Of a stretch of DNA of 64,000 bases, positions 59,103-64,000 are shown piece by piece (within the stretch, counting starts at the first letter, position 1; each line of letters opens with the position of its first letter). The notes beneath the pieces were generated by a model. That model saw only the letters and a list, made by a program, of their open reading frames with translations, ran no database searches and was not told where the DNA came from. Both the position numbers and the translations under genes were made by a program. The stretch is from Candidatus Latescibacterota bacterium (GTDB lineage: Bacteria; Latescibacterota; UBA2968; GCA-2709665). Where the stretch lies: assembly GCA_965237675.1 (NCBI GenBank), contig OZ250150.1, positions 2,624,001-2,688,000 of the forward strand, written 5' to 3'.

Positions 59103-59202
59103 TGTAAACAACGCGGCGAGACGGGACGAATCGGCCTGCCTGCTGAAGCATGCGAGGCAGGCGGATGAATGGTAACATATTTCCGGGACGGGACACTGAG
59201 GA
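59088..59202 (+). repeat. ~115-bp direct repeat / gene leader, copy B
   Basis: Matches 57998-58113; ends 18 nt before ATG 59220. Confidence 0.9.
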
Positions 59203-59219
59203 CCAGTAGGGAAGAGCGA

Positions 59220-59948
59220 ATGCCCCGGCTGACCGACTACCGTGTCCTGACCTTCGACTGCTACGGCACCCTGATCGACTGGGAGTGCGGAATCTGGGAT
59301 GCATTGCAGCCGCTGATGATGTGCAACTCTGCCACGGGCCTCACGCGTGACGCCGTGCTCCGCGCCTTCGCCCAATGCGAGAGCCGGCAGGAGCGGGCCA
59401 CGCCCGGCCTGCGCTATCCGGAACTGCTCGCCCGGGTGCACGTGCGCGTGGCGGCGAGACTCGGCCTGCAGACTGACGACGAACTCAACGCGGCGTTCGG
59501 CGCCTCGTTGCCGCACTGGCCCGCGTTCCCGGACACCGCCGATGCGCTGCGTATCCTCAAGCAGCACTACAAGCTCGTCATCCTTTCCAACGTTCACCGC
59601 GGCGGCATCGCCGACTCGAACCGCAAGATGGGCGTCGAGTTCGACGCCATCTACACCGCGGAGGACATCGGCTCCTACAAGCCGGCCGACGCCAACTTCG
59701 AGTACCTGATCGCCCGCCTGAAGTCGGACCTGGGGCTGGAACGATCGGACGTGCTGCACACCGCGCAGAGTCTGCACCACGACCATGTACCGGCAAGGAA
59801 GTTCGGGCTGGCCAATGCCTGGATCGACCGGCAGCGGCTATCGGAGGGTGGCAGTTGGGGCGCGACCGAGCGGGTGGAAACGACGCCGGCGGCCGACTTC
59901 GTCTTTTTCTCGTTGGGTGAGATGGCGGAGGCGGTGGTGGCCGCCTGA
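59220..59948 (+). CDS. HAD-superfamily hydrolase, haloacid dehalogenase type II-like
   Basis: LTFDCYGTLIDWE, WPAFPD, ILSNV, IGSYKP, LHTAQSLHHDHVPA, WIDR. Confidence 0.9.
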   Translation: MPRLTDYRVLTFDCYGTLIDWECGIWDALQPLMMCNSATGLTRDAVLRAFAQCESRQERATPGLRYPELLARVHVRVAARLGLQTDDELNAAFGASLPHWPAFPDTADALRILKQHYKLVILSNVHRGGIADSNRKMGVEFDAIYTAEDIGSYKPADANFEYLIARLKSDLGLERSDVLHTAQSLHHDHVPARKFGLANAWIDRQRLSEGGSWGATERVETTPAADFVFFSLGEMAEAVVAA

Positions 59949-60763
59949 AACCGAACGGCTACGGTGTGCTGGTGTCACGGGATCTCCTCTCTCAACCTGA
60001 AAGCCGCACACATCCTGCGTTTTCCTTCCTGATTGGTCCCATCCGTAATTTAACATTCGCATTCAAAGTTCTACGTGCCAGGATACGATCTGCGACTACG
60101 GGGGTCGCCATATCTCGCGTACTCCAGGAAAAGTAACAAAAATACGCATTCAAGATCTACCATTTTGGCAGAAATTCATTAGGTTTATTAATAAAGGTAT
60201 GTTATATTCGGTTTACATTGACGTCACGGTTTATAACTCGCTCGGCCCCACTTAGCCCGGATTATTCAGTGCGCCGTGAGAAGGCGCGGAACTCCAGTGG
60301 GTGAGAGTCCCACCCGACAAGAGTTGCTCCAGTCGGTAGCAATCGGAGCGGGGACATAGGCAACGACGTCTCCGAAGCCTCCGGTGTAGAGGGTCGCAAG
60401 GCGACTCGGCGAGTATGTAGGCCGTAACGTGAGTGAACGCTACAGCAGGCCTCGAAAAAGGCAATGCGGGAGCCGACCCGCCTGAATTTCGGGGAAGGCC
60501 GCCGTCGTTGGGGAAGAGGGCAACGCGCGCACCCAACGGTCCCGCCGGGGCAATGGCGACGGCATGCATACAAGGAGATCCGACGCAACACGGGAAGCCC
60601 TATCGGCGGTGGAGAGCCACCAACCGGCAACCCGCGAGGGACATGCCGGGCCGACAGGGGTGGCGGAGAGGCCCGTAGTACCTGTGAAGCCGGGTAATGC
60701 CGGTGGAGGAAAGGGGCCTTGGTTCAAGGGCAACGTCAAAGGAGCGAGAGCCGGGAGATTGGT

Positions 60764-62089
60764 ATGCGCCTAAGACCTCCGGAAAAGGTTCGGAAGCTGC
60801 AAAGGACGTTGCGTGCCCAAGCGAAGGAATCGCCCAATTACCGATTCTACGCGCTATATGACAGGGTATATCGCGAGGACATCCTGCTTTATGCCTACCG
60901 CAGCTGCAAGGCCAATGGCGGCGCGGCGGGTGTGGACACAGAGACCTTTGCGGACATCGAGTCATATGGACGTGAGCGGTGGTTGGGTGAACTGGCGGAA
61001 GCCGTCAGAAGCAAATCGTATCGAGCCGACCCGATCCGTCGGGTCTACATCCCCAAGGGTGACGGCAGGCAGCGACCGCTTGGTATCCCGACGGTGAAGG
61101 ACCGTGTGGTGCAAAGTGCAGCGATGCTGGTCTTGGAGCCGATCTTTGAAGCGGACCTGCCATCGCAGCAGTATGCCTACCGACCGAAGAGGAGCGCGCA
61201 CGACGCCATCAGGGCGGTACACGCCCTGGTAAATACAGGCCACACGCAGGTCATCGACGCCGACTAGAGCGGCTATTTCGACACGATCCCGCACGCCGAG
61301 TTGATGAAATCGGTGGCGCGTCGCATCTCGGACGGGCGGATGCTGCGTCTGATCAAGATGTGGCTGACCGCGCCGGTCGAAGAGACCGACAAGCGGGGTC
61401 GGAAGCAGCGAACAACGTCGAACAAGGATCAGGGAAGGGGGATACCGCAAGGCGCCCCCATCTCGCCGTTGATGGCGAACCTGTATATGCGCCGGTTCAT
61501 TCTGGGATGGCAGCTTCTGGGACATCAGCAGCGTCTGAAGGCTCATATTGTCAACTACGCGGACGATTATGTGATCTGCTGTCGCGGCACTGCGCAAGAA
61601 GCGATGCGCGCAATGCGATCCATCTTGAAAGCGCTTAAGTTGACGGTCAATGAGACGAAGACGGGCGAATGTACGCTTTTAGAAGGACGATTTGACTTTC
61701 TGGGCTACACCATCGGCCGCTGTTACTCGCCAAAGACGGGCAAGGCCTATATCGGCACGCGCCCGCCAAAGAAGGCCATCCGGCGCATCTGCCGGGCCAT
61801 CAGCGAGGCGACGGCGCGACGGTGGTTGCTGAAAGACCTTCAAGAACGGATTGCCCACCTGAACCGAAAGCTGGTAGGCTGGGGCAACTACTTCTGTCTT
61901 GGACCGGTCAGCAAAGCCTACCGGAGTGGGGACAGCCACACCCGGAAACGGCTCCGCTGGTGGTTGTGCAACAAGCATAGGATACCGGGAAAGGGAACCT
62001 CACGCTTCCCTGACGAAGTCCTCTACGATACGCTGGGACTGGCCCGGCTGGAAAGGCAGACGCGCAACCTTCCGTGGGCGAACGCATGA
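60764..62089 (+). pseudogene. ltrA: Group II intron reverse transcriptase/maturase with in-frame TAG
   Basis: RFYALYD, GAAGVD, RPLGIPTVKDRVVQ, DAD*SGYFD (TAG 61265-61267), PQGAPISP, YADD, FDFLGY, GWGNYF. Confidence 0.92.
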
Positions 62090-62133
62090 ATCCTTGTCGG
62101 AGAGCCGGATGCAGGAAATCCGCACGTCCGGTT

Positions 62134-62992
62134 GTGTGTCCAGCGAAGGCTGGCATGTTCAGCAGGAGACAGTCCTGCCGGGGTAAGAGTCAGCAGCCCC
62201 GTAGCTTGGATAGCAGGGTGGCGGGAAACCAAAATCCTGGAGCCTATCGACAGAGTCTCCCTTGGGTGAGATTGCGAGTCATTGGGCCGTAACGAGAGTG
62301 AACGCAGCGGTGGCCCCGAAAGTGCGAAGGTCCGAAGGCCGAGCCCACAACCGGAGGGCGAAGGCAGCATGGGCAGCCGAATGCTGAACGAGACGGCTGC
62401 CCCACTTCGGCGGGGTGGTAGCGATGGCACGATGACAAGGACATGCCGAGCAACTGGAGAAGCCCTCCTCGCCCTGGCGCGAAATCGCCAGAGCAAGGTA
62501 AGCCCTATAACCGGAGACACCGGGAAGGGGGCTGAAGGTGAGAGGGTGGCGGAGGGGCGCGTAGTAGCGAAGAAGTGGGGTAATGCCCGTGGAGCGAAGG
62601 CGCCCTGCTGTTGACCATTCTCCAACAAAAAGGGAGGCACGGGCGGAATGACAAACACGCCCATCAAGGTGCAGGACCTGAGAAGGAGAATATATCTCAA
62701 GGCGAAGGCTGATTTGGCTGGAAGCGGTGGAGTAGGCAGTGGCTATACAAAGGACTCGAACTCTTTTCTGAGTATCGGGTTGACGACCACGGGCCGAAAG
62801 CCACTCCGGTACAATAGGTCCCATAACCCTTGAGAGGAAATCAGCAGGAAAGCCCGGTGCCGGCAAACGGCACGCCGGGTTTGACGTGGCGGGAGTTGGA
62901 AACGTGACCACGGGAGCCGGACTGAGGCCCATCGCGAAAGCGGTGGAATGGCCACCGGACCCTACCGTCGGCGCGCCAGCTCTCGACCCTAC
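62134..62992 (+). mobile_element. Group II intron (inner), non-autonomous, inserted in DV of the outer intron
   Basis: 5' GTGTG at 62134; own DV AAAGCCCGGTGCCGGCAAACGGCACGCCGGGTTT at about 62849-62883; 3' CTCGACCCTAC at 62992; EBS1 AACCGGA and EBS2 GTGCG match the flank. Confidence 0.9.
62648..62790 (+). pseudogene. Internally deleted intron RT remnant
   Basis: MTNTPIKVQDLRRRIYLKAKAD (RT N-terminus) fused out of frame to FGWKRWSRQWLYKGLELFSEYRV (maturase C-terminus). Confidence 0.75.
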
Positions 62993-63157
62993 CGATGAGC
63001 GGGATGTGGAAACGGAGCACGGAGAGGCTATTGAGGCACCGCCAGACGAAAGGGGCGGAAACAGATAGGCCCCTCCTAAACCACCGCGCCACATCTCGAC
63101 TCTACCAAAAAGAGGTAGTTTCCTTGTACAAGAGGTTGTTTATCCCTATATTTAGGG

Positions 63158-63720
63158 GTGACAAAAAAGAACAACCTAAAGAAAGGAAACTACCGTGGTA
63201 TCAAGACAAAACAAACGGTGATGAAGTTTGCAAGCATAATGGGCAAGAAGGTCGAAGCGGACTTCGACGGAGGCGTGACGAGCAGCGACGGCGGTGTGAT
63301 GCTTTTGCGGAAGTTGGAGTCGCGCATGGGCATCGTGGATCGGATCGTCGATGCGCTTTGTGACGGGCGTCACCAAAGTTATATCGCGCATACTTATCGG
63401 GACCTTATCAGACAACGGGTGTTCCAGATCGCCTGCGGCTACGAGGATGCCAAAGACAGCAACACCCTTCGCCCGGACCCTGCGCTGAAAGCCGCGTGCG
63501 AGCGGCTGCCGATCACGGATCAGGATCTGGCGTTTCAGCCGACGTTGTCGCGTCTGGAGAACAGCGTGAGCCGCAGGGACCTCTACCGTGTCGGTGAGGC
63601 GTTTGTGGAGGCGTTCATCGCCTCGTATGAAAAGCCGCCGAAGAAAATCGTGTTGGACATCGACGACACGGATGACCCAACGCACGGGTGCCAGCAACTG
63701 TCGTTGTTTCACGGTTATTT
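63158..63720 (+). pseudogene. IS1380 family transposase, N-terminal part
   Basis: ADFDGGVTSSDGG, QRVFQIACGYED, QPTLSRLEN, IVLDIDDTDDPTHG.QQLSLFHGY, cut at 63720. Confidence 0.9.
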
Positions 63721-64000
63721 GAGCTCTTGTCAAGAGGTGTGTAAAAAGAATCAGGCGGCCAGTTTTTCGGATTGTGTGAAGGGTTTGCCATCCCTGTATA
63801 TTTGACCGGCATAGACGGCAGGCAAGAGATGGGACGCCTGTAGCTTACGGAAGCGTTTTTCTGCAACGACCAAGACGCGCCAAATGAGTGCTGTGGCGTT
63901 TTTGACTTTCTTGAATCGCTTGGCGACGTTGGTACGGAGGCGTACCGAGGCAAAGGGACTTTCCACGACATTGGTGGTCCTGATGTGTCTCCAGTGGGGT
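63721..64000 (-). mobile_element. IS256-family element: right end and transposase C-terminus (continues beyond the window)
   Basis: HWRHIRTTNVVESPFASVRLRT...LAA* (stop at 63751); terminus GAGCTCTTGTCAAGAGGTGTGTAAA. Confidence 0.87.

Follow-up and report, generated by a model that had tools for sequence, protein, structure and literature searches.

In the usual picture, group II introns parasitize genes or other mobile DNA, and several described systems show that they may also lie inside one another. For the YADD-homing lineage (M.a.I5, UA.I3, P.l.I2 and B.th.I3), the accessible text of the source describes insertion in the reverse transcriptase (RT) active-site motif of other group II introns (PMC2504315), and the available part of a further source describes intron nests in Methanosarcina with YADD-type homing (PMC4424553). 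The present analysis concerns a 64,000-nucleotide (nt) stretch of a Candidatus Latescibacterota bacterium genome (NCBI GenBank assembly GCA_965237675.1, contig OZ250150.1, positions 2,624,001 to 2,688,000 of the forward strand; hereafter the window, in whose own coordinates positions are given), in which an 859-nt group II intron lies within domain V (DV) of another group II intron.

Other nested introns have been reported at defined sites. According to the accessible text on the first described twintron, that of Euglena gracilis psbF (Copertino and Hallick 1991), an inner group II intron interrupts the DV of the outer one (PMC8393795). In Thermosynechococcus elongatus, TeI3/TeI4 are described, in the part of the source available, as inner introns without an open reading frame (ORF) at a fixed site in dispersed hosts; the inner copies are closer to each other than their hosts are, which was read as independent insertions, and they are mobilized in trans by a host protein (PMC2882425). 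For the bacterial twintron of Trichodesmium, whose inner intron occupies domain I at a single locus, sequential splicing is described as experimentally shown in the accessible text (PMC4649490). Class C (IIC) introns are described, again in the available part of the source, as inserting beside terminator hairpins (PMC4424553).

Compared with these systems, the 859-nt element in the window is very probably an ORF-deleted member of a widespread lineage, of D1D4-4 type, that homes to the DNA copy of the DV of other group II introns. The evidence comes from empty sites in the same genome, from the distribution of related insertions across genomes and from the covariation of the exon-binding sites (EBS1 and EBS2) with the corresponding intron-binding sites (IBS1 and IBS2) in the target.

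Anatomy of the twintron and its insertion site

The features of the two introns are as follows, all on the + strand.

60269..63105, +: outer group II intron (host), 5' end GTGCGCC, 3' end CTCGACTCTAC, split by the inner intron
60295..60432, +: outer intron domain I-IV core (Rfam RF02003, group-II-D1D4-4, 102.6 bits, gathering score 49)
60764..62089, +: outer RT/maturase ORF (ORF list; Pfam RVT_1 and GIIM, one on each half)
62102..62133, +: outer DV, nt 1-32 of 33, GAGCCGGATGCAGGAAATCCGCACGTCCGGTT (from the sequence; RF00029 puts the same stretch of uninterrupted paralogues in DV)
62121..62125, +: IBS2, CGCAC, two-nucleotide DV bulge and 3' strand of the upper helix; complement of GTGCG (62322-62326; EBS2-IBS2 covariation)
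62127..62133, +: IBS1, TCCGGTT, basal helix of DV, on the 3' strand paired to the catalytic AGC side; complement of AACCGGA (62349-62355; EBS1-IBS1 covariation)
62134..62992, +: inner group II intron, 859 nt, ORF-deleted and non-autonomous, starting GTGTG and ending CCCTAC (exact empty sites in paralogues)
62160..62297, +: inner domain I-IV core (Rfam RF02003, 111.4 bits against a gathering score of 49)
62322..62326, +: EBS2, GTGCG, hairpin loop within GGCCCCG...CGAAGGCC (18-member consensus fold; covariation)
62349..62355, +: EBS1, AACCGGA, in a 9-nt loop closed by GCCC/GGGC (62343-62359; consensus fold)
62648..62833, +: inner RT ORF remnant, about 22 N-terminal codons and about 33 C-terminal codons in another frame, joined near 62712/62713
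62850..62882, +: the inner intron's own DV, AAGCCCGG...CCGGGTTT (from the sequence; same DV type in relatives by hairpin search)
62883..62992, +: inner domain VI (DVI), unusually long, 3' end ...CTCGACCCTAC (a 3' end motif common to family members)
62993..63105, +: 3' part of the outer intron, comprising the last DV nucleotide (C), linker, DVI and 3' splice site (collinear with uninterrupted paralogues; RF00029 alignment of paralogues)

The letters reported in the first-pass annotation, namely the outer DV, the 859-nt insert, AACCGGA, GTGCG and CCCTAC, are all present at the positions assigned to them. Two nested introns can be distinguished in this region: the host has its own D1-D4 core and RT ORF, its paralogues fit the DV-DVI model, and it is collinear with them on either side of the insert. 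Its 5' exon, ...GGATTATTCA, stops at 60268 and its 3' exon begins at 63106, boundaries that are common to three further full-length paralogues in the same genome when compared by BLAST after removal of the inner intron; several fragments are present besides. The inner element in turn conforms to the group II rule at both ends, with 5' GUGYG (GTGTG at 62134) and 3' AY (...CTAC at 62992), and has a DV of its own with an AGC triad; an A at 62986 is a candidate branch point by position. No match to RF00029 (DV-DVI) was obtained in the window at its gathering score, the DVI of the inner family being about 110 nt long.

The insertion point lies 44 nt past the stop codon of the host ORF. Two uninterrupted host paralogues read ...CGCACGTCCGGTTCGATGAGCGGG... 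straight across it, and RF00029 matches them with 49.1 and 40.6 bits (gathering score 40), the printed alignment of the better match placing the stretch on the DV consensus. Because the empty paralogues are continuous across the site and the model identifies it as DV, the insertion is precise and without target duplication. It falls between DV nt 32 and 33. The split at 62133/62993 that had been proposed from the letters is therefore exact, as the empty paralogues show, but a cut through DV is not what it amounts to, given that 32 of the 33 nt stay together 5' of the insert; the losses are the closing base pair of DV and its connection to DVI.

A second inner copy, 98.3% identical over 860 columns, occupies the same DV position of a third full-length host relative. 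The two twintrons are located at different chromosomal places with different outer exons, and their hosts are 94.3%, 94.7% and 96.5% identical over three aligned pieces. Such a difference, with inner copies closer to each other than their hosts, fits independent insertions into hosts that had already diverged. The 13-nt word formed by IBS2, a G and IBS1 (CGCACGTCCGGTT) occurs at five sites in the 5.6-Mb genome, all of them in DVs, and two of the five are occupied. Among the 387 genomic sites of the 8-mer GTCCGGTT, none beyond the two DV sites carries an inner copy, so that the genome total is two.

It could be argued that the locus results from an assembly error, or that it is one unusual intron, for instance a circularly permuted one, and not a nested pair, and none of the contigs listed for four public sequencing runs has 31 or more letters on both sides of either junction, which leaves no independent assembly check from that source. 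Against this stand the two copies with different surroundings in one genome, the same junction in dozens of independent assemblies, including isolates of Paraburkholderia madseniana, Caballeronia udeis and Bradyrhizobium manausense, and the fact that each intron has its own D1-D4 core, DV, DVI and 3' end while uninterrupted host paralogues exist. The artefact reading, to which we assign practically no probability, can be considered refuted for practical purposes, and the misassembly that the first-pass annotation had named as a possible refutation is answered by the same observations. A circularly permuted intron in particular is ruled out by the uninterrupted host paralogues; the accessible part of the permuted-intron paper contains nothing similar.

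The inner element is best understood as an ORF-deleted derivative, since it retains RT remnants and matches both arms of a 1990-nt ORF-containing relative (93% identity, with the split at intron position 579/580). The remnants, delimited from the ORF list, the RTs of full-length relatives and a tblastn match of the last 37 residues, are confined to the N and C termini, and an intron-encoded RT that would confer autonomy is absent from the inner intron.

In the window, EBS1 and EBS2 form seven plus five Watson-Crick pairs with the 3' strand of the host DV. When the window copy is folded together with 17 relatives, the consensus places EBS2 and EBS1 in the loops of successive hairpins, both inside a three-pair helix, and across the 18 sequences these loop positions are the variable columns of the fold. 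By eye, the inner intron's own DV mismatches its EBS1 at two of seven positions.

Relatives in other genomes and their targets

Family members were collected by exact matches to the first 21 nt of the inner intron, with one genome per species, which yielded at least 119 stretches and at least 126 junctions in 65 assemblies; all family counts from this public scan refer to the matches listed. A DV was called complete by a hairpin rule of our own, which accepted at least eight of nine basal pairs, or seven of nine together with an AGC or AAC triad. On this basis, 94 of 126 junctions lie in a complete DV, 7 in a DV without its 5' half, 4 directly behind another family copy and 21 elsewhere. When counted by distinct 40-nt flank, 54 plus 7 of 83 are in full or partial DVs, representing 50 distinct DV sequences, and 46 of the 65 assemblies contain at least one DV copy. 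The expectation of the first-pass annotation that DV would flank nearly all relatives on the 5' side is thus largely borne out, with the 21 junctions as its shortfall, and its proposal of a lineage directed at the ribozyme core of other introns is supported and widened from one locus to 50 distinct DVs and four host types.

According to record titles, carriers include Alpha-, Beta-, Gamma- and Deltaproteobacteria, Acidobacteriota, Anaerolineales, Methylomirabilota and others, with isolates of Paraburkholderia (P. madseniana), Caballeronia (C. udeis) and Bradyrhizobium (B. manausense) among them. Within the phylum of the window, 16 of 168 genomes gave any match, mostly to a conserved piece of 46-69 nt that is common to other introns. 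Outside the window genome, five junctions were found in this phylum: two (L032 and L010) lie at ...GGTT of two further, different DVs, and the other three (L007, L008 and L022) in a common non-DV repeat that ends in a similar word. These last three, L007 and L022 in one genome (G106) and L008 in another (G107), are the closest relatives of the window copy, with a full-length copy that has a 455-aa ORF among them, and are situated just past a repeated hairpin-forming element, ACTGRACTWTTGCAAA..., that is not a DV.

A control that starts from the junction and is blind to the family gave a comparable picture. Metagenome contigs were searched for the pattern of a DV 3' strand followed by GTGYG, with at least 120 matches listed; 29 of these 120 have a DV-like upstream side, and in 27 of the 29 the family 5' end follows, the other two looking like chance hairpins. 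A further 88 are chance matches with neither a DV nor the family 5' end, and three are family 5' ends behind partial or cut-off DVs. Among the matches listed, introns of other kinds were not seen at this position of DV.

The pairing between intron and target is maintained through changes on both sides. For EBS1-IBS1, the best register is identical in all 52 distinct flank/hairpin combinations; with a G-U pair given half a point, 41 reach 6 of 7 or better, 18 of these with full pairing. The mean of 6.16 of 7 compares with 5.04 +/- 0.11 for shuffled flanks (maximum 5.43 in 1000 shuffles). For EBS2-IBS2, 43 combinations give a mean of 3.81 of 5 versus 3.09 +/- 0.10 (maximum 3.43 in 1000 shuffles). 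Although the test values are inflated by relatedness, the compensatory pairs themselves are independent of the test: seven IBS1 words have compensating EBS1 words (e.g., TACGGAA/TTCCGTA, TACAGTT/AACTGTA, TCCGGGT/ACCCGGA and CACGGTT/AACCGTG), and EBS2 exchanges include GTGGA/TCCAC, GAGAG/CTCTC and AGTTA/TAACT. The EBS1 and EBS2 positions assigned in the first-pass annotation are accordingly confirmed, both as hairpin loops in the 18-sequence fold and by covariation that none of 1000 shuffles reaches. In 39 distinct DV targets whose 3' exon is known, G at -8 and -3 is invariant, and +1 is C in 28, T in 7 and G in 4.

In 36 loci analyzed with Rfam, the family's own D1D4-4 core follows directly past the junction. 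A same-strand host core within about 2.2 kb upstream was detected in 17 of the 36, distributed over D1D4-2 (4), D1D4-4 (5), D1D4-6 (6) and D1D4-7 (2), where four of the six D1D4-6 loci come from one metagenome-assembled genome (MAG), three complex nests are uncounted, and the rest have no match or short upstream sequence. Since the hosts fall into four D1-D4 types, the lineage appears to enter several structural types through the part that they share.

These data also bear on the possibility that a single old, accidental DV insertion was followed by copying of the twintron as a unit, the DV flanks then reflecting common descent. Such hitch-hiking would account for a MAG (CAVWVF01) in which at least 35 junctions have an identical 48-nt flank and the same compact ORF-less host with its inner intron recurs at many sites, and both copies in the window genome do lie in one host family. 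However, it is difficult to reconcile with 50 distinct DVs and four Rfam D1-D4 host types, with EBS1 and EBS2 re-tuned to the DV variant, with empty paralogues that carry a perfect target, with tandem re-insertions at one site, or with inner copies that are closer (98.3%) than their hosts (94-96%). We consider this explanation very unlikely, and for the family as a whole it is already largely refuted.

The alphaproteobacterial MAG just mentioned (CAVWVF01..., L041-L149, e.g., L061:1636-4366) contains at least 35 copies of a composite element at different chromosomal sites, each consisting of a compact ORF-less host intron and a 2002-nt RT-encoding DV-homing intron. The host has its Rfam D1D4-6 core some 0.5-0.7 kb before the junction and a DV triad of AAC, not AGC. 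The composite may act as a two-part retroelement whose only RT comes from the inner intron.

Tandem arrays at one DV site were observed in L051, L079 (twice) and L088, each with an ORF-less copy of 925-927 nt followed by another family copy. The second copy is about 2.0 kb where its 3' end falls within the locus, and looks like re-insertion into an occupied target. Such arrays are consistent with a recognition that needs only the 5' exon, which is still available once the site is occupied.

In a midpoint-rooted tree of 82 distinct 5' parts, built without support analysis and from which no order of events is drawn, DV copies are found in all major clades, and non-DV copies are scattered tips or small clades. 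One common non-DV target (L050, L059, L069, L136 and L141) ends in ...GCGCCGGGATAAACCGGCATGWWG and is fitted by an EBS1 of CTTCATG. The idea that ...GCGCCGGGATAAACCGGCATGWWG is the 5' end of another intron was unsupported, as Rfam gave no host D1-D4 core in the three loci tried.

Family 3' ends were located by motif search in 70 of the 126 listed copies; of the 56 without one, 37 had less than 2.1 kb of sequence. The 70 delimited copies comprise 47 of 1800-2200 nt, 16 of 700-1200 nt, 3 shorter than 700 nt and 4 longer than 2200 nt. An ORF of at least 400 aa (433-499 aa), coding for RT/maturase, is present in 40 of the 47 long copies, and Pfam detected RVT_1 and GIIM but no endonuclease domain in the one family RT scanned (L111, 437 aa).

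The family's own DV differs from its targets. In 17 distinct combinations, the own DV ends in CUGCGUU (12), CCGGGUU (2), CUGGGUU (2) or CCCGGUU (1), in comparison with UNCGGUU for targets; the lower helix is kept as a helix with its letters changed. EBS1 fits the own DV with a mean of 3.4 of 7 and the host DV with 6.0 of 7. Self-avoidance, suggested in the first-pass annotation from the single locus, therefore holds as a trend and fails as an absolute rule: four members (L094, L056, L065 and L044) are inserted in family-type DVs, one of them (L094) with a partly adapted EBS1. Relatives are consequently not safe from each other.

Proposed mechanism and present state in this genome

Under the DV-homing reading, EBS2 would pair with the 3' strand and bulge of the DV upper helix (CGCAC) and EBS1 with the 3' strand of the basal helix (TCCGGTT), and the intron would reverse-splice between DV nt 32 and 33. 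Because EBS1 and EBS2 pair with the hairpin's own 3' strand, the DV hairpin must be melted rather than recognized by its shape. Autonomous members of about 2.0 kb would encode the RT and maturase. As this DV stretch is nearly invariant across structural types, any intron-colonized genome would offer harmless, transcribed landing sites. The host intron would probably be disabled until the inner one splices out, its DV being cut off from DVI, and newly made host copies could be re-invaded. Given that the endonuclease domain is missing, integration would presumably proceed into transiently single-stranded DNA at replication forks; in the available text, Tourasse and Kolsto argue for reverse splicing at replication forks in endonuclease-free introns that target other introns (PMC2504315). 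In the window genome, three of four host copies are co-oriented with the replication fork (GC skew minimum at 0.16 Mb and maximum at 3.94 Mb), a ratio that represents n = 4 only. Target recognition is well grounded; we infer the integration route, the order of splicing and the effect on the host.

A different route would be invasion at the RNA level, with reverse splicing into host-intron RNA, after which reverse transcription and recombination would fix the composite. By definition the target is transcribed, and the EBS/IBS pairing of group II introns works on RNA as on DNA; the present data do not separate the two routes. Retrohoming into DNA is nevertheless the documented route of bacterial introns, replication forks are favored for endonuclease-free intron-targeting introns in the accessible text of PMC2504315, and a host RNA whose DV is separated from DVI would template its own mobility poorly. 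We therefore regard invasion of RNA as distinctly unlikely.

Several points weigh against a lineage that homes to DV. The family counts describe an exact-probe sample, and the DV calls follow a hairpin rule rather than a curated model. Sampling is also skewed, as one MAG contributes 40 of the 126 listed junctions; after its removal, 65 of 86 are in DVs. The 21 junctions outside a recognizable DV correspond to 21 of 83 distinct flanks and include two recurrent non-DV targets, and the closest full-length relative of the window copy (L008) itself lies in a recurrent non-DV target. On account of these junctions, the recurrent targets and the placement of L008, DV has to be described as preferred and not exclusive. 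The endonuclease-free domain content is that of one family RT. With 32 of 33 DV nt together, the host ribozyme may be less crippled than the term split DV implies.

Within the window genome, no sign of activity was seen. No cognate inner-family RT was found in the genome, the best tblastn matches being the RTs of the host introns (35-37% identity). The second inner copy has an EBS1 of AACCAGA, with one mismatch to its target, and three DVs with a perfect target stand empty. In public sequencing data, the joint 62133>62993 was present in all four runs assembled as contigs, two of which are not recorded as RNA; for this reason the joint reflects empty paralogues and not splicing. Six RNA runs contained just 6-8% of the sampled words.

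Neither of the invaded hosts is intact. The RT ORF of the window host is interrupted by an in-frame TAG at 61265-61267 (DAD*SGYFD, seen against paralogue translations), and position 12 of its DV, in the upper helix, is A where paralogues have G; the other host carries a 1.7-kb ORF insertion. One uninvaded host copy retains an intact RT ORF together with an empty, perfect target. The lack of a cognate RT, the decay of both hosts and the mismatched EBS1 of the second copy suggest that the system is dead or dormant here, and the inner elements look like relics or helper-dependent elements.

One might also consider a domesticated switch, in which regulated splicing of the inner intron would control the activity of the host intron or its RT. 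The geometry would allow it, since inner removal would restore the DV-DVI connection, but both invaded hosts have decayed (RT stop plus DV point change in one, 1.7-kb insertion in the other), the inner copies lack an ORF and the genome has no cognate RT, and the family is patchy and multi-copy, like a selfish element. A regulatory role is thus exceedingly improbable.

A more speculative extension of the DV-homing reading is that these introns are hyperparasites that disable the introns they invade, with their own DV re-coded for immunity and part of the DV variation in bacteria representing escape. This is a tentative proposal that we hold to be rather doubtful. Under it, the re-coded lower helix would be GCGCAG/CUGCGU or GCCCGG/CCGGGU, and the AAC triad and GGGU end of the most heavily invaded host would be possible examples of escape. 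If true, it would imply an arms race inside the catalytic center of a ribozyme and could explain DV twintrons such as that of Euglena.

An ordinary gene for a HAD-type hydrolase (59169-59948; Pfam Hydrolase, HAD_2) immediately precedes the mobile-element cluster. Of the four host-intron copies, three are preceded by a 5' exon ending in WATTCA (window 60209-60268 and three paralogous sites), and two are followed by TGAATT; because these exon ends recur, the host family appears to have a different, partly palindromic homing site of its own. The outer 3' exon (63106-64000) leads into the start of an insertion sequence (IS), with a transposase fragment at 63221-63727 (Pfam DDE_Tnp_1_4, E = 1.6e-55) that is truncated near 63728 by another element on the minus strand. 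An 82-aa frame (63751-63999) has no Pfam match. In the host of the second twintron (G000:C1:3960091-3958394, minus strand), the 1.7-kb insertion is located in the RT ORF, and its ends resemble the IS-like sequence beside the outer intron of the window (GGTAGTTTCC...GGAAACTACCGTGG).

Comparison with described systems

A full-text literature search found no description of a bacterial DV-homing lineage, although central papers, the Zimmerly database and supplements were beyond its reach and may list one. The first-pass annotation named no well-described DV-specific case; as a single case, a DV-located inner intron is already described for psbF (PMC8393795, accessible text), and for a bacterial lineage the statement stands as far as the search extended. 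According to the available text, two pipelines for finding introns either leave twintrons aside or do not detect the outer intron (PMC4028801, PMC8919778), and for this reason such elements are probably under-counted. The target is present in several host structural types, four Rfam types having been seen, the lineage occurs in assemblies labeled with at least eight major bacterial groups, and its own DV is altered so as not to match. A DV-homing lineage would thus offer a natural, sequence-defined system for studying DV variability, the formation and resolution of twintrons and mutual restraint among introns.

The class C introns can be compared first. Their defining features are a short IBS1, the lack of an EBS2 and a target set by an upstream hairpin; their RT has no endonuclease domain, and insertion occurs at the 3' foot of a DNA hairpin. 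The inner intron differs from this class in that a 7-nt EBS1 and a 5-nt EBS2 covary with the target.

Among the nested systems, and within what the accessible texts describe, the psbF twintron likewise has its inner intron in DV but is a single organellar case in a protein gene, its description including no lineage-wide DV homing, EBS tuning or RT. The Trichodesmium example is likewise a bacterial twintron, unlike the present one in having its inner intron in domain I at a single locus. TeI3/TeI4 have in common with the present case ORF-less inner introns, a fixed site and inner copies closer than their hosts; in contrast, they occupy a position flanked by two start codons of the host's domain IV ORF, in one genome and one host family.

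The YADD lineage, as far as the available text describes it, is similar in several respects: it homes to a highly conserved part of other group II introns, it makes twintrons, its RT lacks an endonuclease domain (as in the one family RT here), and target conservation is limited to IBS1 and IBS2. The logic of a "perpetual homing site" is described for it in the accessible part of a review. It is distinguished by its target, a protein-coding motif in domain IV, and by a B-like structure, whereas the lineage described here is of D1D4-4 type and is addressed to an RNA motif, DV, in at least four host types; the inner intron of the window inserts in DV and not in the host RT active-site codons. Homing of introns into introns is therefore already known for the YADD lineage and for single loci, and a lineage addressed to DV would be new.

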